A stretch of DNA of 64,000 nt, taken from positions 32,001 to 96,000 of the IMG/VR virus record IMGVR_UViG_3300048672_000970. The stretch is one strand, 5' to 3'. The notes beneath the pieces are model-generated. The model ran no database searches. It saw only the letters and a program-made list of their open reading frames with translations, and was not told where the DNA came from. A program made the translations under genes and the position numbers. Positions 5,054 to 18,941 of this stretch are shown in pieces (within the stretch, counting starts at the first letter, position 1; every line of letters begins with the position of its first letter). This stretch comes from a virus (taxonomy: Duplodnaviria > Caudoviricetes).

Positions 5054-5270
5054 TCAGCGACAGAGTGAGTTCGTCGTTTTTGAAAGTTAGGAAAAACACA
5101 TATCCAATCACTTCATCTAACACTCTGACAATCCTGTCTCGTTTTGCTGCATAGGCGGCTGATGTAATTTTGATAGTGAAGGTGTATTTCTCCGGGCCAA
5201 AGACGGCTTCTGGAAAAACAGACATCACCTTGCGTCTGAACTCATCTTGTGTAATTAAAGAAGTGCCCAT
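5046..5270 (-). CDS. hypothetical protein
   Basis: ORF with AAGGA SD before MGTSL. Confidence 0.55.
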   Translation of the reverse strand: MGTSLITQDEFRRKVMSVFPEAVFGPEKYTFTIKITSAAYAAKRDRIVRVLDEVIGYVFFLTFKNDELTLSLNE

Positions 5271-8855: not shown

Positions 8856-10592
8856 TTATTCAAGTTGAGAAGTGTAAATGGTTTGGAATTCATCCGCCCA
8901 ATCATTATTGGTTGACCACAGCTTTTTGATATTGCTATCAATGAAATAGGTGGTTGCCCAATCGTTAACGTGGCGTACCGACCGGCCGGCGCCTTGCACC
9001 AATTTTAGCAGCGTTTCAAGCTGATAGATGTGCGGGTACTGATCAAGAATTCGCTTCATGCGCGCGTCACCAAGGCTGCCATACGGCGCTTTAACGATGA
9101 TTTGATACCGTGACTGGTCATTAGGCAAATCGATGCCCTCAAAGCCGGCTGGCGTCAGCAGGATGGCAGACCCCTTGTATGCCTTGAAAGCTTTCAGCAC
9201 CTGATTCAGTTTTTTGCCCTGTTCATGTTGAAAGATTTGCGCATTGGTCTTCAATCCATTGGCAATCAAACTGTTCAGCTTGAAAGACGGCGTAAGAATA
9301 ATTCCCCGCTCTTTCTTCGCATGGTGGTGATTGACAATTTGATTGCTCAGGGAAACCAACTTTTTCCCTGTCTCCGGATTCTGTAATGATTGATAACTCA
9401 GTGGAATCGGATTGAGGAAAATAACTTTCTTGTTCTTCTTCGGAAAGACAGCCGGTGCTTTGATGAATTTCACCTTACCGGGAATCTTCATATAAGCCTT
9501 AACTAACGTTTCGTTAATCGTCGCGCTCATGATAAGCGTATAAGTCGAATTGACCATTTCACGATACATATCACCGATGAACAGCGGTTTGATAATGAGC
9601 TGATATGGCTGATTCGGGTCTTGGGCAGTTGGCTGCTTGAACTCATACGAGTGTTCATAAGTTTTTGAAACGAACTTGTCCGTTACGCCGACCAGATTGC
9701 CGAGCTTGCGCGAAAACTTGTTCAGCGTCTTGAACAGTTCTTTGTTCAGGACGAAATCCTTCATGTTGAGAATTCGCTCATTGACATCTGCGAGAAATGG
9801 CCGATAGACATCTTGAAGCATCAGGGAGAAAAACTCAACATAGTTTTCTTGCGTGATATCACCAGACGTAAAAATACCTTTCAGGTCTTTAACTAACTTA
9901 GCATACTTCGGATTCCCGAGTGCAAGCGTTGCTTCTTCAGCGAGTTTATCAAACAGTGTTTCTGACAGTTCTAACGTGACAAAATCAACGAACAGTGAAT
10001 TAGTCAGATGCCCTTCGTCAAATACTGCGAGGGTACGAGATTGCAGTGCGATTTCATCCGGCATGAAAAGTCGGTCAACGTAGTAATACGCATAATTTGT
10101 CACCAGATGGTGTGACTTTTCTTTTTTCTGACGAAGGAAATTGTATTGACAAAAGCGGCAATGCTCATTGAGCATTTCTTCATTGTTCGACCGAGTGAAA
10201 TCGGAGAAAACGCAATCTTCCGCAGTGGTTGGTTCACCCGTACTGGATAGTGCCGAGCAATTATAGTTCGATGCACCTTTCACCACCAGAAAGTTGAGGT
10301 CGCGTTCAGATTCAGCAAAATCGGTCGCATACTGATCGAGCAGGACGTTAGTTGCTGATAGCAGAAATGATGCTTGTTCGTGCTGGTCTGGGTGCAGAAT
10401 TGAATGGAGTGCTTCAGCAGTAACGACCGCTATCGTTGACTTACCTCGGCCAGTGGGTGCGGATAGGATGATGGTTTTGTTATCTTCATCCAGAAATGAG
10501 ACAAGAAGCTGATTGATAATTTCTTCTTGTCCGTCCCACGGCTCACGGCCGACCTTCTTGAACGCGGCTAAAATTTGTTCCTTGTATTTCAT
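8856..10592 (-). CDS. DinG/Rad3-like SF2 helicase with Fe-S cysteines
   Basis: SAPTGRGKS, DEGH, MSAT, EGIDLP, QGAGRSVR motifs; C..C..C..C cluster; SD before MKYKEQ. Confidence 0.85.
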   Translation of the reverse strand: MKYKEQILAAFKKVGREPWDGQEEIINQLLVSFLDEDNKTIILSAPTGRGKSTIAVVTAEALHSILHPDQHEQASFLLSATNVLLDQYATDFAESERDLNFLVVKGASNYNCSALSSTGEPTTAEDCVFSDFTRSNNEEMLNEHCRFCQYNFLRQKKEKSHHLVTNYAYYYVDRLFMPDEIALQSRTLAVFDEGHLTNSLFVDFVTLELSETLFDKLAEEATLALGNPKYAKLVKDLKGIFTSGDITQENYVEFFSLMLQDVYRPFLADVNERILNMKDFVLNKELFKTLNKFSRKLGNLVGVTDKFVSKTYEHSYEFKQPTAQDPNQPYQLIIKPLFIGDMYREMVNSTYTLIMSATINETLVKAYMKIPGKVKFIKAPAVFPKKNKKVIFLNPIPLSYQSLQNPETGKKLVSLSNQIVNHHHAKKERGIILTPSFKLNSLIANGLKTNAQIFQHEQGKKLNQVLKAFKAYKGSAILLTPAGFEGIDLPNDQSRYQIIVKAPYGSLGDARMKRILDQYPHIYQLETLLKLVQGAGRSVRHVNDWATTYFIDSNIKKLWSTNNDWADEFQTIYTSQLE

Positions 10593-10646
10593 GCAGTCCT
10601 TTGGTGCAAAGTTGGAGATGCTGAATGATAGCATCTTTTAACGAAC

Positions 10647-10669
10647 AATCCCCGCGTTTAGCGGGGATT
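10647..10669 (-). terminator. GC-rich hairpin, probable terminator
   Basis: AATCCCCGC-gttta-GCGGGGATT in intergenic space. Confidence 0.5.
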
Positions 10670-10943: not shown

Positions 10944-11429
10944 TTAACGACCCCCGATAATGATTCGTGCCCGAGATTCCAGCCCGTAAAGCTGATGATG
11001 CTCTTGCTTTTGAGCATGCTTCGCCCGCGCCTTTGCCTCATCGGCAAATTCATACCGGCGAGCCGTTTGAAAAGTTTGAATGATCTTGCCAACGTCAGAC
11101 AGCACACTTGCACGCGTTGCCAGGATTTCTCCTTCCACGTCCACGTCAATCTTGCTGAAAGAGAAAATGGACGGCTGCGTGTGCTCCAGAGTTTCAACCA
11201 GCACATGATCCATGGCTTGTCGAATATTCTTCACCAGCACTTCATCCTTTTGGCCGGTGGCAAACTGTTCGCGCATCAGCTTTGCCAGCGCAGCATACGC
11301 CTTCGATGCTGCGGGCGTCAGCACGCCGGGGATCGGGAGATTCTTGCGATTCCACGCCTGTTGCTGGCGGGTCAGGAAAGGTTGTTGTGCGGCAATCTTC
11401 TGGCTCGGTTCAACGATGTGCTTTTGCAT
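10944..11429 (-). CDS. hypothetical protein immediately downstream of the CRISPR array
   Basis: AAGGA SD before MQKHIV; own early promoter (TTGTCT-16-TAAAAT); no Cas motif recognised. Confidence 0.65.
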   Translation of the reverse strand: MQKHIVEPSQKIAAQQPFLTRQQQAWNRKNLPIPGVLTPAASKAYAALAKLMREQFATGQKDEVLVKNIRQAMDHVLVETLEHTQPSIFSFSKIDVDVEGEILATRASVLSDVGKIIQTFQTARRYEFADEAKARAKHAQKQEHHQLYGLESRARIIIGGR

Positions 11430-11525: not shown

Positions 11526-12164
11526 ATGTTAATCCGCACAAGTGGCGGCGAGGGACTCACGTAGCTTGAGCATCAAAGACGCGAGCCTTTTAAGCCGCAC
11601 GTATGGCGGCGAGGTCAGCAGAGTATCACCGCATTGCTGAAATCTGCTCTTTTAAGCCGCACGTATGGCGGCGAGGAACTCATCTAACCTGACGCTCATC
11701 GCAGGGCTTCTTTTAAGCCGCACGTATGGCGGCGAGGCTGCTCGGTTTGAGTGCTGATGCAAAAGCTGTTCTTTTAAGCCGCACGTATGGCGGCGAGGGG
11801 ATTTTCTCAGTCAGCGGCAGTCACATCAGTTCTTTTAAGCCGCACGTATGGCGGCGAGGTTTGCAATCCGGCCAGCGGAGTTGAGTGAGATACTTTTAAG
11901 CCGCACGTATGGCGGCGAGGCCAGTCGTTTTCAACGGCGGAAGATTCTTGATTCTTTTAAGCCGCACGTATGGCGGCGAGGATGCGGTCAACTGAAAATT
12001 CTTCTTTCTCAGTTCTTTTAAGCCGCACGTATGGCGGCGAGGGTTGTTTGACAGAATGACTGAATTAGTCGTCAACTTTTAAGCCGCACGTATGGCGGCG
12101 AGGCGCACTCGTGATAGTTCCTGCAGCGATTTCAGCCTTTTAAGCCGCACGTATGGCGGCGAGG
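11526..12164 (-). CRISPR. type I-F-like CRISPR array, 11 repeats (10 identical + 1 degenerate), 10 spacers of 33 nt (one 34)
   Basis: 28-nt repeat CCTCGCCGCCATACGTGCGGCTTAAAAG (minus strand); plus-strand starts 11587, 11649, 11710, 11771, 11832, 11893, 11954, 12015, 12076, 12137; degenerate copy at 11526; all spacers unique. Confidence 0.97.
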
Positions 12165-12320
12165 TAGAGCTTTTCAGAAAAACATTAATTAAATCAATAA
12201 CTTACATCATTAACTTAAAGTAACCCTTTCTCAAAAGTTACCGTTTCTCACTGTCAAAAAGATGATATAAATCAATGACTTACCTCACTTTCTTCAAGTG
12301 ACTGAAAAATAAAGGGGGTC
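12165..12320 (-). promoter_or_regulatory. CRISPR leader with two IHF sites and inverted repeat (I-F type)
   Basis: AT-rich; WATCAANNNNTTR exact matches at 12192-12204 and 12270-12282; ACCCTTT (12223) / AAAGGGGGT (12311) inverted repeat. Confidence 0.85.
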
Positions 12321-12339
12321 ATTTGGCTGGACTATCTCC

Positions 12340-12753
12340 TTATCGGATGACTTCCAGCGAGAACGGAAGCGAGCGGAACCGCAACACTTTGCCCGCATCG
12401 GCCTCCGTCACGCCCACCGGGAAACGCTTCGACCGGCGACCCTTGATGGTCGGGTCATGCACCCACAGGCCGCCCTTTTGGCGCAGGGTCGCTTCAAATT
12501 CATAACCCTGCTTGGCAGCATCGCGTTCATTCCGGCGACGGATTTCCTCATTTCGAGCCTGATTTGCCCGTTCTTCCGCAGCAGCCCTTGCGGTACGGTG
12601 CTCTGCAAGAGCCTTTTCAGAACGGGCGTTAGACGCCGCCCATTCAGCGTACAGAGCTTGCGCTTCAGCACTTTGCGGGTGGAGCAGCTTAACACCATTC
12701 GGCAGAGTGGTGCATCCGAACATTTCATGATCAGCTTGGCGTGCGTCAGACAT
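12340..12753 (-). CDS. hypothetical protein
   Basis: GGAG SD, lies between tRNA-Lys and the CRISPR leader. Confidence 0.65.
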   Translation of the reverse strand: MSDARQADHEMFGCTTLPNGVKLLHPQSAEAQALYAEWAASNARSEKALAEHRTARAAAEERANQARNEEIRRRNERDAAKQGYEFEATLRQKGGLWVHDPTIKGRRSKRFPVGVTEADAGKVLRFRSLPFSLEVIR

Positions 12754-12770: not shown

Positions 12771-12846
12771 TGGTGGGTTGTGCCGGCTACGATCCGGCGA
12801 CCTACTGATTAAAAGTCAGTTGCTCTACCTACTGAGCTAACAACCC
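12771..12846 (-). tRNA. tRNA-Lys(UUU) with atypical T-loop AUCGUAG
   Basis: GGGTTGT acceptor, GCTC/GAGC D stem, ACTGA-CTTTTAA-TCAGT, GCCGG T stem, encoded CCA. Confidence 0.92.
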
Positions 12847-12863
12847 GTTGTGTTCAAGACTCT

Positions 12864-12891
12864 ATTATATACGATTTCAAAGCCGCGTCAA
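12864..12891 (-). promoter_or_regulatory. sigma70-type early promoter
   Basis: TTGACG-16-TATAAT upstream of tRNA-Lys, ORF and CRISPR leader. Confidence 0.7.
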
Positions 12892-13589: not shown

Positions 13590-14042
13590 TTACGGAATCA
13601 CTTTGAAATATTGTAGGCGCCATTTTTGTGTGTTGGAATCAAAACAGATGGGACAAAATTGCTTAAGAGTGCCACACGAGCCTTTTATATTATCATCAGG
13701 TATAAACAATGTAATACCATCCCCATTAAACATTTTGCCTCCCTGGATTTCAACCTGAGTTAAAAGCGCATCAACTGCAGCTTCCACCGAAATAAACTTC
13801 AGCGCATCTTTTTGATTGTTGGTTAGTTCAGCCGAGAAACGGGCTGGATTAGAGGCATCGTCCCCTGTTTTAATGAATCCAGAATAAGTTAGGTAAGAAA
13901 ATTCGATAAGAGCCATAAAGTTTTCCTTCGCCAGAGTGACGCATCCCGGCATTAGCTTTTGTCCATTACCCGTGCACGATAAGGATAGAGATTTTACACC
14001 CCTACCTGAATATGTAACAAACGCGTTTTCGATTTTAGTCAC
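13590..14042 (-). CDS. hypothetical protein
   Basis: overlaps the MTase stop; AT-rich. Confidence 0.55.
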   Translation of the reverse strand: MTKIENAFVTYSGRGVKSLSLSCTGNGQKLMPGCVTLAKENFMALIEFSYLTYSGFIKTGDDASNPARFSAELTNNQKDALKFISVEAAVDALLTQVEIQGGKMFNGDGITLFIPDDNIKGSCGTLKQFCPICFDSNTQKWRLQYFKVIP

Positions 14043-14458
14043 CCAAACACTTCATCATAGTCCACCGTCAGCCCATTAGCGCATACGATGTTACGTTCAA
14101 CGATGTGCCGAAATTCTTCATGACCTGCTAGAAGTCTATCACGGCATAGCTGGACGTTATCGGGCATGATGTCAATCCCGTAAATGGTTGATAGTGCTTG
14201 TTCCAGCGTAGAGCCGTTTTCCAGCTTCCTGATGAGGATTTCTGAAAGGAACTGCCCATCCCCGCAGGCGTTGTCAATAAACGTCTTAGAAGGGTCTTTG
14301 AAGACTTCTGGGTTGATATGGTCAAGCACTTCTTGAACGAGTGGAGTGGGGGTGAAAACTTCAGCAGTAGCTTTTACCCGATTTGCATCACGTTCGATAC
14401 CTGACATATATTCCCGGTTTCGGGCATGATTGATGATATGAGTTAGTTCAGGATTCAT
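14039..14458 (-). CDS. N6-adenine methyltransferase, SAM-binding half only
   Basis: EVFTPTPLV (motif X), IDNACGDGQF (motif I), IYGIDIMPDN (motif II); no NPPY/F. Confidence 0.8.
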   Translation of the reverse strand: MNPELTHIINHARNREYMSGIERDANRVKATAEVFTPTPLVQEVLDHINPEVFKDPSKTFIDNACGDGQFLSEILIRKLENGSTLEQALSTIYGIDIMPDNVQLCRDRLLAGHEEFRHIVERNIVCANGLTVDYDEVFG

Positions 14459-15458
14459 TTGACTTTCCATTCTTGAGTTCTTTCTTAATAGCTTCCACGA
14501 GTTTTTGGCAAAAGGTATTCCCAATAAATTGAGTAAATGGGAATACTTCAACCGCCGGGCCATCATATAGCCGCTCATTTAGCAAATAGATATATCCGCT
14601 TGTCATCGATGCATCTGATGGGTCAGATGCCGCTTTCATTTTCCCAAATTCCTCTTTAACAAAAAGAGGCGTGCTACCGGGAATATCATGCATCATTACG
14701 TCATATTCGGCGGATTGCAAAGAGCATTTAACGTAATAGGTTGAGCGAATATTTCTATACTTCATCCTAAGTTCGTCAAACCCCACGTTGGTAGTCATAA
14801 TAGCATCAATTTTGTAGTGCGAATTATATTTCAGCGGGGCGGAAGGGGATAAAAAACTACTTACTGTATATTCAGTTCGGCTTACCCATTGTTCAAACAG
14901 ACCCGTATGGGTGACTTCGGAAACGAAAGTTACTTCTCCCGGCGTTTCAGTGCTAGCCGTACTGCCTTTAATTACACATTCATCTTTGGTTAGATTTTGC
15001 TTCGGACACACAAAATTCAACAGGCCCATTTTGTTGGCAAAGAAAAATACGGGAACTTCTGTAACGGATGCATCAATGTAACGTGCCACACGGCCTTCAC
15101 CATAAAGTCTATAAGCCGCACTTTTCTTATTTCGTGGATCACCCTTGCCACATACGGCATTCTTAAGAGAGTCCAAAGACGAAGTGGGATTAATGACGAT
15201 TCTACCAGTTGTTGTAATTACGGTGTTATCACTACACACGAGATTAAAAGGGGAGGTGAACACAACCACCCCGTTTTTGTTTTCACTTTTTGTCATTACA
15301 TCTACTGACCCATTTTTATTAATGGCTACTGAGTCAACGTCGAGGAAAAATTTCCTATAGTCACCCCCATAACCATTGGTAGCATAAGCCACCCAATCAG
15401 CAGCATTTGCCCCAACACCCATTACGGCCAATAACCCAGCAATCAAAGTCTTCTTCAT
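14448..15458 (-). CDS. secreted/periplasmic protein
   Basis: signal peptide MKKTLIAGLLAVMGVGANA; N-terminal W...FLDVDSV domain resembles surface-adhesin-E-like folds. Confidence 0.6.
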   Translation of the reverse strand: MKKTLIAGLLAVMGVGANAADWVAYATNGYGGDYRKFFLDVDSVAINKNGSVDVMTKSENKNGVVVFTSPFNLVCSDNTVITTTGRIVINPTSSLDSLKNAVCGKGDPRNKKSAAYRLYGEGRVARYIDASVTEVPVFFFANKMGLLNFVCPKQNLTKDECVIKGSTASTETPGEVTFVSEVTHTGLFEQWVSRTEYTVSSFLSPSAPLKYNSHYKIDAIMTTNVGFDELRMKYRNIRSTYYVKCSLQSAEYDVMMHDIPGSTPLFVKEEFGKMKAASDPSDASMTSGYIYLLNERLYDGPAVEVFPFTQFIGNTFCQKLVEAIKKELKNGKSNES

Positions 15459-16138
15459 TCTTCCACCCCTTCTCGCAGTTGATAAGCTTCAAAGTCAATT
15501 TCACAACTGGCAACCGAGATAGGTGCCAGACCATTTTTCTCACGGAGCATGTTAAGAAAGCCGAAGTTATCTTTCACCTTCTTCTTAATCATATCTCCGT
15601 TGACAACTTCCACGCAGCCAAAACACATTTCATTCAGATTGAAATGGATGCCCTTGGCGGTGGTGAACAAAATCTTTCTAGCCTTATAGGCTACTCGCTC
15701 AACCAGCGCACGCATACTCGCATGTGTGATAAAATTGGTAATACCGTATTCATCATTTGCTGTAAATTCATATGAAGACTTTTCAACGTACTTCATCTGA
15801 ATAAAAACGGGGGCGCCGGGATGGCCGGAAATCTTGCCATCATGATAAGGCTTCAGTGTAGTAGTCTTCCCCTCTGCATCAATGCCATAATCCTTAGCGG
15901 TATCACACAGCTCTTTTGAGAGGGCTACTCCATGCAGGTTGAAATCCTTACCAAAATAATTAAGGAACTCTTTTCCAAACCATTCGAGGAAATCACCCTT
16001 AAAGACTTCAGGATGGTTTTTATACGCATCCTGAATCGGCTTAGAACGAGCTTGTTTCTTCACACGGTCAATGATATCTGAAAAGTCAGGCTGCTGGAGC
16101 AGTTGAGCAAAATCAGCATACTTTTCAAATCTGGTCAT
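15455..16138 (-). CDS. Mrr-like PD-(D/E)xK nuclease (Type ISP nuclease-like)
   Basis: DYGIDAEG...VFIQMKY, a D-(n)-D...QxK signature. Confidence 0.65.
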   Translation of the reverse strand: MTRFEKYADFAQLLQQPDFSDIIDRVKKQARSKPIQDAYKNHPEVFKGDFLEWFGKEFLNYFGKDFNLHGVALSKELCDTAKDYGIDAEGKTTTLKPYHDGKISGHPGAPVFIQMKYVEKSSYEFTANDEYGITNFITHASMRALVERVAYKARKILFTTAKGIHFNLNEMCFGCVEVVNGDMIKKKVKDNFGFLNMLREKNGLAPISVASCEIDFEAYQLREGVEE

Positions 16139-16152
16139 GATACCCTCTGTTG

Positions 16153-17478
16153 TTACGGTGCCTTACGTTGCTTTTTCGCCTTACCGGGTGCGTTTGCTTC
16201 AATGTATGCAATTTCTTCCGGCGTCAGCTTGAGAGCATTGTAAATCAGGTTTGGCGAAAAGTCAACGGCTAAGTCAATCTTTGGGATGTGGGCCAGCAGA
16301 GTTCGGTTGGTGAATCCGGCCGTTTTCGTTTGGTCAAGAAGCCATGCCATGATGTCAGATGTGAGGTATTCCATAATATGCGTACCTTCTAATGGCGTAT
16401 CCACCAAAATGGCGGCGGCGTGCTCGGTATATCCCCACTCGCCATCCATATCAAAAACCATTTTGTCGGACACCGTTCCTCTGGCGGCGTAAAGGGGGAA
16501 CACAATTTTCCGTTTGAACTGATTAGGATGGGGCTTAGAGCCATATCGAATGCTCGCGCCGTGCACATTCGGATAATGAAATACATTATCATCAACTTTC
16601 GACATATGCGGCCTGCGGGCATCATTATTCGAGTCAAACAACACTTCCATGTTTTCACGAGTTCTATCATTGAATACTTTATTCATAATAGAAAGACTGA
16701 TAGTGTCAACCGTTTCAGGCATAACTGTAATATTATTTAAATTGATAAAAACCGTATCTTTACCATTCACCGCAGTGGTTAAATGTTCCCGCGAAGGAAG
16801 TTCTTTTTTAACAATGAACCAAGAAACAGTCGTACCAACGGTAGGGAAATATTCACGGGCATTTAAGCAAATGTACTCGGCGCTGTATTTGTTTATCACC
16901 TCTTTAAACACTTTTGTTTTGGAATCGGCCCAAGCATTTGGCGTAATCATTGCCAGATGGCCGGACGGCTTGACAAGTTTCATACCTGCCAGGACAAATT
17001 CCGTCCACGCCTTCTTACTGCTGGCTGCGTCTTTATCTTGAAACGGCGGGTTGCCGCACACCACATCAAATCTCATATATCTCCAATCAATGTTGCCAGT
17101 GGAAATGCAAGCATACTTGATGCCATGCATTTCACACAGTTGACGGATTTTATCATGATAGTCGTTGGTGGCGAGCGTAACGGATGCGTTATTTTGTAGT
17201 TTCAGCCACAGCGCCCATTCAAACGTCTCAAAGACCAACACGGATTGATTTCCACGGGGCAGATACGTCTGAATGTTTTCAATCAACTGATACGCAGTAA
17301 ACGGTTGGGTGAAGGCATCTTCACGGTCGGATGGTGCCGCATAAATGTCAGAAATTAAAAAATCGGCAATGGCACTCAGAATTTCAGAATTGGCAGTGTG
17401 TTCACAGTCAGTGAAATTTTCCGTGTTCAGCATGTCGTTCCAATCAAAGTTATTTGGTATGGGTGAATTATGGTACAC
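16153..17478 (-). CDS. adenine methyltransferase catalytic half plus target recognition domain (Eco57I-like)
   Basis: FDVVCGNPPFQ motif IV, GHLAMITPNAW; motif I degenerate; long C-terminal TRD-like region. Confidence 0.8.
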   Translation of the reverse strand: MYHNSPIPNNFDWNDMLNTENFTDCEHTANSEILSAIADFLISDIYAAPSDREDAFTQPFTAYQLIENIQTYLPRGNQSVLVFETFEWALWLKLQNNASVTLATNDYHDKIRQLCEMHGIKYACISTGNIDWRYMRFDVVCGNPPFQDKDAASSKKAWTEFVLAGMKLVKPSGHLAMITPNAWADSKTKVFKEVINKYSAEYICLNAREYFPTVGTTVSWFIVKKELPSREHLTTAVNGKDTVFINLNNITVMPETVDTISLSIMNKVFNDRTRENMEVLFDSNNDARRPHMSKVDDNVFHYPNVHGASIRYGSKPHPNQFKRKIVFPLYAARGTVSDKMVFDMDGEWGYTEHAAAILVDTPLEGTHIMEYLTSDIMAWLLDQTKTAGFTNRTLLAHIPKIDLAVDFSPNLIYNALKLTPEEIAYIEANAPGKAKKQRKAP

Positions 17479-17501
17479 CCATTTAACGCCGTCAAGCTCT
17501 G

Positions 17502-18941
17502 TTACACAATCTTTGCGCGCAACATTTGAAGATATCGGGCATGTGACTTCTTAACGGCGGTCAGTTCCTTTTCTTCACGTTCTTGTTCTTCCACTTCAAT
17601 TTGAAGACCAGGGTCAATGGCCTTACGAACCGTCATCAAGTCTTGATATCCAGTAGCGTCAACAAGAGCTTGCAGCACTTGTTTTGCATCCGGGCCGGTC
17701 AGTTCATGGTGGTCAATGACCGGGATGATCACCAAACATTCTCGCTTCTGCCTAATGTCAAAATTGGCGGCGCGACTGAACTTGCCAGGGTCGGGGAGAT
17801 AGTCGGGGCGAGTCAAATCACCAATGTAAGGGCGGGCGCATCGACCAACTGATTGAATCAGCTTTTCACGAGTCTTTTCACTCATGAACAGAACTGCAGA
17901 CAAAGTGGAAATGTCAATCCCTTCTGCCAAAGTGTCATAATGCGCAACAATACAGTTTCGCTGATTTTCCTGAATGTCCTTCAGCAGAGCTTCCCGCGAC
18001 TGGAAAAAGTTACCGTCTTTCATCTGATTCTTGGAAGATACGGTATTAATGTTAAAACATCCGGCCACTTCCGGCAGTTCAGCAACAATACGGTCATAGA
18101 TTTTCCGCACGTTAGTTTGAATGGTGGTAATGTCAACTTGCACGTCACGAGTACAAACCAGCATCTGTGTATGCGGCATACCATTGAGCCGATTTCGCTT
18201 ATACGATTCAACAAACCCGGCGACCAGAATATCAACAATAGTTGCCGAAAGTTCGACATTCTTTCGATTGGCATGCAGTTCAATAATGGCCGGAGGGACA
18301 ATGTAGCCATCCTTGTAAAGTTCATACGGAAGCACTTCAGCAAGCACGCGTCCATACATCGATTCATTCATCGCCGAATGCATGTCAACTTTTTCACCAT
18401 TCTCATATACCACCGGGGTTGCGGTATAAAGCAAACACTTCGTTTTGAAAGACAAATTCATGGTGTAGTCCCTGAATTGCTTTTGCGCCAGATAATGTCC
18501 CTCATCAGCAATGACCAAATCAAATTCAAAATCATTGATGTGGGTGAAACTGTCATACGACGCATACGTGATATGCACATTACCCACATCCATAGCGGAA
18601 TTGATACATTCCGTCAAAATGGAAGCATTGGTAGTATTGATTTCCATCCGCATGTAACCTTCAGGGTGAGCGCCAGAATTGAAAGAATTCTTCACGACTT
18701 CAATTCCGCAAATCCATTCAGCACCGTTACGCACTTGTTGCTGACTGAGCGCAATGCGCGGCGTGACAACACAGAAATTACGCATACCAAGTTCAACTGC
18801 ATGCTCGATTGCCTTGTTGAACAGGACAGTCTTCCCCGCGCCAGTAGGCGCATAAATTTGCCCAAGCATTTCATCATTTTCGATAAACGCCTTGGTGGCG
18901 TTGTGAATCTTTTCTTGGTACGGGCGCAGGGTCTTGGACAT
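17502..18941 (-). CDS. SF2 DEAD/DEAH helicase, restriction-enzyme R-subunit-like
   Basis: LRPYQ, PTGAGKT, DEGH, YTATP, MNESMYG, TLAEGIDI, QSVGRCAR. Confidence 0.88.
   Translation of the reverse strand: MSKTLRPYQEKIHNATKAFIENDEMLGQIYAPTGAGKTVLFNKAIEHAVELGMRNFCVVTPRIALSQQQVRNGAEWICGIEVVKNSFNSGAHPEGYMRMEINTTNASILTECINSAMDVGNVHITYASYDSFTHINDFEFDLVIADEGHYLAQKQFRDYTMNLSFKTKCLLYTATPVVYENGEKVDMHSAMNESMYGRVLAEVLPYELYKDGYIVPPAIIELHANRKNVELSATIVDILVAGFVESYKRNRLNGMPHTQMLVCTRDVQVDITTIQTNVRKIYDRIVAELPEVAGCFNINTVSSKNQMKDGNFFQSREALLKDIQENQRNCIVAHYDTLAEGIDISTLSAVLFMSEKTREKLIQSVGRCARPYIGDLTRPDYLPDPGKFSRAANFDIRQKRECLVIIPVIDHHELTGPDAKQVLQALVDATGYQDLMTVRKAIDPGLQIEVEEQEREEKELTAVKKSHARYLQMLRAKIV

Follow-up and report, generated by a model that had tools for sequence, protein, structure and literature searches.

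A CRISPR array that stands among phage genes raises two questions: which Cas proteins could serve it, and against what are its spacers directed? We addressed these questions for an array read on the minus strand at 11526-12164 of a 64-kb stretch of phage DNA, here called the window, which corresponds to bases 32001-96000 of the 200,363-bp IMG/VR record IMGVR_UViG_3300048672_000970. Coordinates refer to the window unless they are marked G000, which denotes the whole record. An original prediction made from the window had described 11 repeats and 10 unique spacers, a repeat resembling those of type I-F and no recognisable cas gene in the 64 kb, and had proposed that the phage borrows host I-F Cas proteins for inter-phage warfare, encodes a divergent effector outside the window, or uses the array as a decoy akin to the RNA anti-CRISPRs (Racrs). 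The reading that we favour, with confidence evenly divided between acceptance and doubt, is that of a functional orphan array which is served in trans by I-F-like machinery, most likely that of the host, and which is used against sibling phages.

The carrier is a T4-related freshwater jumbo phage. Its T4-type large terminase and UvsW-type helicase place it among the T4-related phages, and the sequencing runs that contain it are freshwater metagenomes; no RNA sequencing run containing it is listed. CheckV estimates the completeness of the record at 56%, and related phages measure 330-368 kb. Extending the record past its contig ends by exact-protein look-up found no further record.

Structure of the array

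The body of the array (11554-12164, minus strand) comprises ten exact copies of a 28-nt repeat and ten spacers, each of them unique, with a period of 61 nt. On the plus strand the repeat reads CTTTTAAGCCGCACGTATGGCGGCGAGG, its copies starting at 11587, 11649, 11710, 11771, 11832, 11893, 11954, 12015, 12076 and 12137; in the sense of the CRISPR RNA (crRNA), that is on the minus strand, it is CCTCGCCGCCATACGTGCGGCTTAAAAG. An eleventh, degenerate copy, the terminal and oldest one, lies at 11526-11553 on the same strand; its loop reads ACTT and its 3' end is mutated. The exact repeat copies bear out the coordinates, the repeat sequence and the repeat and spacer counts given in the original prediction, and its spacer length of 33 nt holds for nine of the ten spacers, the remaining one being 34 nt long. 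The array is read on the minus strand because the degenerate repeat is at the low-coordinate end and a leader with 72% A+T lies at 12165-12330. Regular identical repeats, unique spacers, an AT-rich leader, a degenerate far-end repeat and spacers that vary between strains are all present, as expected of CRISPR arrays in general. Neither a second CRISPR array nor solitary repeat copies or anti-repeats were found elsewhere in the 200-kb record.

Spacer turnover among sibling phages

Three sibling loci were recovered. A metagenome scan for the repeat core returned one contig, L015, which is 96.4% identical to the window phage over the leader, ORF137, the tRNA-Lys gene and the next gene. Two more, L016 (91% identical) and L017 (about 79% identical), were found through homologues of ORF161, the gene directly downstream of the array, and in both the trailer end of an array lies directly upstream of that gene. 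In all three siblings the array thus occupies the same locus as in the window phage, and none of them has a spacer in common with it. The L015 array consists of four ATAC-loop repeats followed by an ACTT-loop repeat at the contig end, and its four spacers include none of those in the window. Within the freshwater sequencing run X1, in which 84% of the sampled sequence words occur and which holds the window strain itself, one contig carries a different spacer at the leader-proximal repeat (loose end at 12138). Runs X2-X4, which partly cover the flanks and give no cover over the spacer region, were not used as evidence. Spacer content turns over quickly within this lineage, and the complete replacement of spacers between 96%-identical strains, together with sibling spacers drawn from genes of the lineage itself, offers a concrete, testable case of CRISPR competition among near-identical phages.

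The three repeat variants of the lineage differ solely at loop positions 11-14, which read ATAC, GCTT or ACTT; no change is seen in either stem arm, at G15 or U16, or in the 3' handle. The ACTT form seen in the degenerate repeat of the window recurs at the trailer end of the L016 array and is the working repeat in L017. Constant stem arms and handle beside a varying loop fit with selection acting on the hairpin and the handle.

Spacer targets

We then asked what the spacers match. The ten spacers of the window gave nothing beyond chance against their own 200 kb and no protospacer in isolate phages, plasmids or 13 large relatives, and the 24-nt seeds of spacers S1, S2 and S4 had no match in IMG/VR. 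The spacers of L015 likewise had no match among isolate phages. The protospacers came from the sibling arrays, all of them within the lineage. Spacer L015_b matches a protospacer at 33/33 in L141 and L142, two contigs of the same sequence that share 91% identity with the window phage; L141 derives from the same metagenome as L015, and L142 co-occurs with L016. The window phage carries the same site with 32 of 33 positions matching, at G000 5210-5242 (matched run 5211-5242), 26.8 kb before the window. The target is an open reading frame (ORF) of 140-160 aa that adjoins a PhoH-like gene. The full-length match implies that the spacer is truly 33 nt long.

Two further sibling spacers have diverged matches in genes of the window phage. 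L017_a matches the 5' end of the helicase gene at 25 of 33 positions (10507-10539) and L015_c matches ORF137 at 24 of 33 (12384-12416); in neither case did any of 300 shuffles reach the same score. The siblings' own alleles of these genes are equally mismatched to their spacers (24/33 for L017_a and 22/33 for L015_c), which argues that both spacers derive from other, diverged members of the lineage and not from self. The three matches fall on both coding senses, and this fits with the targeting of DNA rather than RNA. Thus, of what had been proposed for this array, inter-phage warfare is directly supported: by the sibling spacer that matches at 33/33 (32/33 in the window phage) and by the two diverged matches to lineage genes. 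A spacer search and derivation of a protospacer adjacent motif (PAM), which had been put forward as a check, gave no protospacer for the ten spacers of the window, whereas those of the siblings did yield protospacers, one of them exact and flanked by CAG.

The sole difference between the window phage and the L015_b protospacer, at G000:C1:5210, is a synonymous third-codon change (TCG/TCA) at guide position 1, on the PAM side. Such a silent change resembles a CRISPR escape mutation; it is a single case.

One other match was set aside. A 51-nt stretch of the window (12049-12099) is 82% similar (E 4e-4) to Pseudomonas phages Milchi and Astolliot (L080:301-351) and was judged coincidental. It takes in part of S2 and 24 nt of repeat, lies at the start of a hypothetical coding sequence and includes a 14-nt exact stretch of the repeat core; it remains unexplained.

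Relation of the repeat to type I-F and type I-E repeats

The type of the repeat was assessed against arrays whose cas genes adjoin them. For type I-F, 400 Gammaproteobacteria were sampled, of which 32 had Cas6f, giving 22 arrays adjoining cas6f with 18 distinct repeats. In all 22 arrays the repeat is 28 nt long and recurs with a period of exactly 60. Compared in register, the phage repeat is identical to the I-F repeats at 13-20 of 28 positions (mean 16.9), and the best of 5,000 shuffled repeats reached 17/28. Among themselves the I-F repeats share 15-27 of 28 positions (mean 21.9), which makes the phage repeat an outlier. It keeps seven of the eight invariant I-F positions (C6, C9, G17, G20, T22, A24 and A27) and has lost T2, and it combines a length of 28 nt in register with a Cas6f-type hairpin and a CTTAGAAA-type handle. 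The position-for-position likeness to I-F repeats that had been noted at the outset is therefore upheld by the 22 arrays and the shuffles, as are the differences described with it, namely the CC start, the C10/U16 mismatch, the compensating G5-C21 pair and the 33-nt spacers.

The geometry of the stem falls within natural I-F variation, since I-F repeats with a mismatch between positions 10 and 16 exist (L090, L094 and L106) and one of them, L094, also has the G5-C21 pair. The C10/C16 mismatch in these three natural repeats leaves a 4-bp stem and a 7-nt loop, a geometry that the textbook I-F consensus usually omits.

Control arrays of type I-E, which adjoin I-E cas2, all have a period of 61 and 29-nt repeats. 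Against repeats of the I-E kind (GTTCCCCGCG...GGGGATAAACCG type) the phage repeat matches at no more than 16 of 28 positions even when offsets are allowed, and the handle differs; the period of 61 agrees. An assignment to type I-E was rejected on the lower repeat identity and the different handle. A search of Rfam, including its CRISPR direct-repeat (CRISPR-DR) families, returned no match to the repeat at E values up to 10. Judged by its sequence, the repeat with its hairpin is I-F-like, at the fringe of that family, and the 61-nt period is I-E-like.

Leader and promoters

The leader (12165-12330, minus strand) is free of genes, and in L015 it is conserved at 97-98%. Within it a 47-nt sequence is duplicated (12178-12224 and 12256-12302), and each copy holds a perfect match to the consensus of integration host factor (IHF). 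Both matches are on the plus strand, antisense to the array: the proximal one, WATCAANNNNTTR, at 12192-12204 (-40 to -28 from the first repeat), and the distal one at 12270-12282 (-118 to -106). IHF-consensus sites number 12 in the whole 64 kb, the two strands combined. IHF-assisted spacer integration is established for types I-E and I-F, and the leaders of the two types differ: in I-F leaders, two IHF sites and inverted repeats fold about 150 bp, whereas I-E leaders have one IHF site (bioRxiv 10.1101/2023.05.26.542337). No inverted repeats were found in the phage leader. Positions for comparison were taken from our own sample of 22 I-F leaders and about 20 I-E leaders, where the strict IHF consensus has the sense orientation and occupies -96 to -84 (I-F) or -21 to -9 (I-E). 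The adaptation signals point to an integrase that would use IHF and would not be the canonical I-F integrase, and an IHF-using integrase would in turn indicate a host of proteobacterial type.

Transcription could start at either of two candidate sites, both on the minus strand. A weak sigma-70-like promoter lies inside the leader at 12206-12234 (9 of 12 positions, a consensus match only). Farther upstream, the tRNA-Lys(UUU) gene with its promoter occupies 12771-12891; the promoter itself (12864-12891) is near the sigma-70 consensus, reading TTGACG-16-TATAAT with 11 of 12 positions matched. As no terminator was detected between the tRNA-Lys promoter and the array, transcription of the array by read-through from this promoter is possible.

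Search for cas genes and for a bacterial source of the repeat

Models of Cas6f, Cas1 and Cas7f were searched against the six frames of the whole 200 kb, with no match even at E = 10. About 150 ORFs of at least 160 aa were compared with PADLOC, which has Cas models of all types; they included four of the five proteins longer than 1,000 aa and the 14 ORFs nearest to the array, and showed no Cas1, Cas2, Cas5, 6, 7, 8, 9, 12 or 13 and no Csf family. Weak "Cas3" matches belong to the UvsW-type helicase. What had been reported for the 64 kb, that no cas gene could be recognised, is thus confirmed and extends to the full record, which reaches 43 kb from the array in one direction and 156 kb in the other. 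Neither Cas1 nor Cas6f nor any related repeat or array was present in 13 more distant relatives, of which seven are at least 94% complete, and a Cas6f-like match in one of these relatives, G413, was noise (E 0.03, internal stops). The array is accordingly a small insertion confined to a narrow lineage.

The repeat core was equally absent from 185,579 species genomes; when any tetraloop was allowed, the same genomes gave 50 single hits, compared with about 70 expected by chance. No other IMG/VR contig contained the core, looser patterns giving single chance matches only, and the exact ATAC-loop core was found among JGI metagenome contigs in the sibling phage contig L015 alone and in no bacterial contig.

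A model for the array and the evidence against it

Under the model that we favour, minus-strand transcription of the array would begin in the leader or reach it by read-through from the tRNA-Lys promoter. Each repeat is predicted to fold into a G+C-rich hairpin running from G5-C21 to C9-G17, to which a C10-G15 pair might be added if U16 bulges out. A Cas6f-type endoribonuclease could cut at the 3' base of this hairpin to release crRNAs of about 61 nt, in each of which a 33-nt guide would stand between a 5' handle of 7 or 8 nt, (C)UUAAAAG, and the hairpin at the 3' end. These crRNAs would join a surveillance complex of type I-F-like Cas proteins provided in trans, most likely by the infected host because the phage shows no cas genes. 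The guides would be aimed at the DNA of co-infecting siblings of the same lineage, with competition and superinfection exclusion as the outcome, and new spacers would be inserted at the leader-proximal repeat by an integrase of the Cas1-Cas2 type, which the bending of the leader by IHF would assist.

Several observations weigh against this model. The borrowing of host Cas proteins is chiefly weakened by the fact that the repeat matches no bacterium; published viral mini-arrays, by comparison, copy the repeat of their host exactly (PMC11656645). The phage repeat starts with CC although T2 is invariant in all 18 distinct I-F repeats, and the I-F Cas1-2/3 of P. aeruginosa requires a repeat beginning 5'-GT (10.1101/2023.05.26.542337). 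The period of 61 is I-E-like and contrasts with the 60 seen in 22 of 22 I-F arrays, and the IHF sites of the leader differ in both position and orientation from those of the sampled I-F and I-E leaders. The sole exact protospacer is flanked 5' by CAG and not by the CC of type I-F; the homologous sites of the two diverged matches have CC and CA flanks, and more than one exact case would be needed to define a PAM. With only about 56% of the genome in the record, the missing 44% could carry cas genes of the phage itself. Finally, L141 might belong to L015's own genome, which would make the perfect match of L015_b a self-match, and not to a co-occurring 91% sibling such as L016. The differing flank identities (96.4% versus 91%) and the occurrence of L142 together with L016 weigh against this, and the point is not settled.

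A host I-F system, the partner first proposed for this array, consequently remains a candidate only, as the repeat is in no bacterial genome or contig, lacks the 5'-GT, recurs with a period of 61 and has a target flanked by CAG. That no host repeat was found may mean that the host is not among the sampled bacteria, that its Cas6f and Cascade tolerate a divergent repeat, or that the phage encodes Cas proteins in the missing 44%.

The combination of the repeat, the 33-nt spacers, the non-GT 5' end, the non-CC protospacer flank and the leader with two IHF sites raises the possibility of an undescribed CRISPR-Cas lineage derived from type I-F. We advance this tentatively and would sooner expect it to fail than to hold: such a system would join an I-F-type crRNA architecture to an I-E-like spacer geometry, would have its Cas proteins encoded either by a freshwater bacterium not yet sampled or by phage sequence missing from the assembly, and would serve mainly as a weapon against siblings. 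Since no sequenced bacterium matches the repeat, which deviates from the GT end, the 60-nt period and the CC PAM, the partner Cas proteins could reveal either a new I-F-related subtype or the limits within which a host tolerates foreign repeats.

Alternative explanations

The first alternative places the Cas proteins in the phage. Divergent I-F-like Cas6, Cascade and Cas1-Cas2/3 could be encoded in the unassembled 44%, in which case this would be an ordinary, though split, phage CRISPR-Cas system comparable to that of Vibrio phage ICP1 or those of huge phages. A repeat confined to the phage lineage and found in no bacterial genome speaks for this explanation, and the CC start, 61-nt period, non-CC flank and odd leader layout would suit a dedicated integrase and effector that evolve with the array. 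There is room for them, given a CheckV completeness of 56% and relatives of 330-368 kb, and huge phages with Cas systems are on record (PMC7162821). In known phage systems, however, the cas genes adjoin the arrays (PMC7162821), and here no Cas family was found in 200 kb, nor a second array, and 13 relatives, seven of them nearly complete, lack Cas1, Cas6f and any related array. The effector outside the window that had been suggested initially could thus reside in the unassembled part but becomes less likely in view of these cas-less relatives, and we regard the explanation as a whole as unlikely.

An array that is not used for phage immunity at all, being either a tolerated by-product or sink of host integrases, which would load spacers into any array that has a suitable leader, or a decaying relic, seems less probable still. 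That no Cas partner was found would be accounted for; in the case of a sink, an integrase of the host would sample spacers from the gene pool of the lineage during infection, and the perfect match of L015_b is possibly to L015's own genome. Against this reading stand the retention of array, leader and flanks across phages of 79-96% identity, the homogeneity of the repeats and the conservation of stem and handle while the loop drifts. The ten spacers of the window phage moreover avoid its own genome, and in both cases in which spacer and sibling allele are known the sibling's own allele is mismatched.

We consider very improbable a role as RNA anti-CRISPR or regulatory decoy, in which the array would titrate the Cas6f and Cas7f of the host in the manner of a Racr or silence host genes like a crRNA-like regulator. 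Racrs mimic host repeats and occur in phages, I-F types included (PMC10651486), crRNA-like regulators of phages have been reported (10.1101/2024.10.29.618823), and a repeat that is I-F-like yet atypical would be compatible with either. Racrs are, however, solitary repeat units or very short arrays without real guides, while the phage array has ten unique spacers, a leader with IHF sites, full spacer turnover and protospacers in siblings, and solitary repeat copies or anti-repeats, as said, do not occur elsewhere in the record. The decoy, the last of the functions first suggested, is disfavoured on these grounds.

A final candidate arises from the DinG/XPD-type iron-sulphur (FeS) helicase gene at 8856-10634 (minus strand), identified by profile matches and situated 0.9 kb downstream of the array. 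By its sequence relationships this helicase is a core replication gene of phages and not the type IV protein CasDinG; its homologues are spread across many phage groups, and a single-protein search of IMG/VR gave no close relatives. That array and helicase form a minimal type IV-A-like module is hardly credible and was rejected: a match to the PADLOC typeIV_DinG model at 1e-47, the shared strand and a 61-nt period with a possible 7-nt 5' handle that would be compatible with type IV-A are outweighed by a better fit to a general phage helicase family (phrog_2488, 1.7e-82), by the tight thymidylate synthase (thyA)-AAA-helicase-AAA...guanylate kinase (gmk) module that surrounds jumbo-phage homologues (310-377 kb; 38-46% identity) with no array nearby, by four invariant FeS cysteines retained between motifs I and II where CasDinG has lost them and keeps a vestigial FeS domain (PMC10450177), by the lack of Csf1, Csf2, Csf3 and Csf5 among the scanned ORFs of the 200-kb record, by an additional gene between ORF161 and the helicase in L017, and by a protospacer flank, AACAG, incompatible with the GNAWN motif of type IV-A.

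Comparison with known systems

The favoured reading, an orphan array directed at siblings, has precedents with which the locus can be compared. The locus shares with bacterial I-F arrays the 28-nt repeat in register, the hairpin arms, the CTTA-AA handle positions and an AT-rich leader with two IHF-consensus sites, and it departs from them in CC instead of GT, U at position 16, a period of 61, a different placement of the IHF sites, the CAG flank and the lack of adjacent cas genes. The lytic Vibrio phage ICP1 has an array of the I-F type and takes up new spacers into it; a full cas operon adjoins its arrays, and its target is a host island. In the record of the window phage, by contrast, no cas genes were found, and the targets are sibling phages.

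ICP1 is cited as a well-described phage CRISPR system in the survey of huge phages by Al-Shayeb et al. (2020), which also describes compact arrays in metagenomic jumbo phages that, as here, have no adaptation or interference genes, with a published median of six repeats (PMC7162821). Huge phages with cas-less arrays were proposed to use host Cas proteins against competing phages (PMC7162821). Their repeats resemble those of host arrays, whereas the repeat of the window is restricted to the phage lineage, and as far as could be checked neither this phage clade nor this repeat type is among those described there. The viral mini-arrays of the Saccharolobus portogloboviruses SPV1 and SPV2 (PMC11656645) are similar in being cas-less, in having spacers that match relatives of the carrier and in implying the use of host Cas proteins. 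They differ in having one or two spacers and repeats identical to those of the host; the present array has ten spacers, a full leader and complete turnover, and its carrier is a T4-related jumbo phage of bacteria.

Huge phages and archaeal viruses have therefore already furnished examples of the phenomenon (PMC7162821, PMC11656645). The new elements are the phage clade, the clear spacer turnover together with sibling targeting, and an I-F-like repeat that breaks three I-F rules and matches no known host. Evidence for turnover and sibling targeting has so far come mostly from the mini-arrays of archaeal viruses, with their one or two spacers, and from a few gut huge phages.

Flanking genes and other observations

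Read along the minus strand, the region runs from the strong sigma-70-like promoter through tRNA-Lys(UUU), ORF137, the leader, the array, ORF161, ORF88, a hairpin, the DinG-like helicase and an AAA ATPase to, further on, guanylate kinase. ORF161 (10944-11429, minus strand), an orphan gene for a helical protein directly downstream of the array, has its own promoter-like site and ribosome-binding site and adjoins the array in L016 and L017 too. ORF137 (12340-12753, minus strand), also an orphan gene, lies directly upstream of the leader. Neither belongs to a family in Pfam, NCBIfam, PHROGs or PADLOC, and homologues of both were found within the lineage only. Their predicted folds are not RAMP-like, and structural look-alikes in the atlas searched were weak.

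The stretch downstream of the array appears to be a variable spot, as ORF88 is replaced in L017. There, ORF161 and the helicase are separated instead by a 260-aa ORF (L017:711-1493) of which the window phage has no homologue and which gives a faint beta-solenoid match only.

Among more distant genes, minus-strand ORFs at 14039-18941 of the window, 2 kb from the array, have weak to moderate matches to DNA methyltransferases and SF2 helicases (PADLOC MTase_II 1e-12, PbeA 4.5e-10). PADLOC models of PtuB (1.8e-7) and of a type IV methyl-directed restriction enzyme (1.1e-9) match single ORFs in G000 80-134 kb and 134-200 kb, and these ORFs could possibly be phage-borne nucleases or defence-like genes.

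Between ORF88 and the start of the helicase gene lies a G+C-rich hairpin of 9 bp (10647-10669), which receives a terminator score on the plus strand only. It is kept at 100% in L016 despite flanks that are 91% identical.

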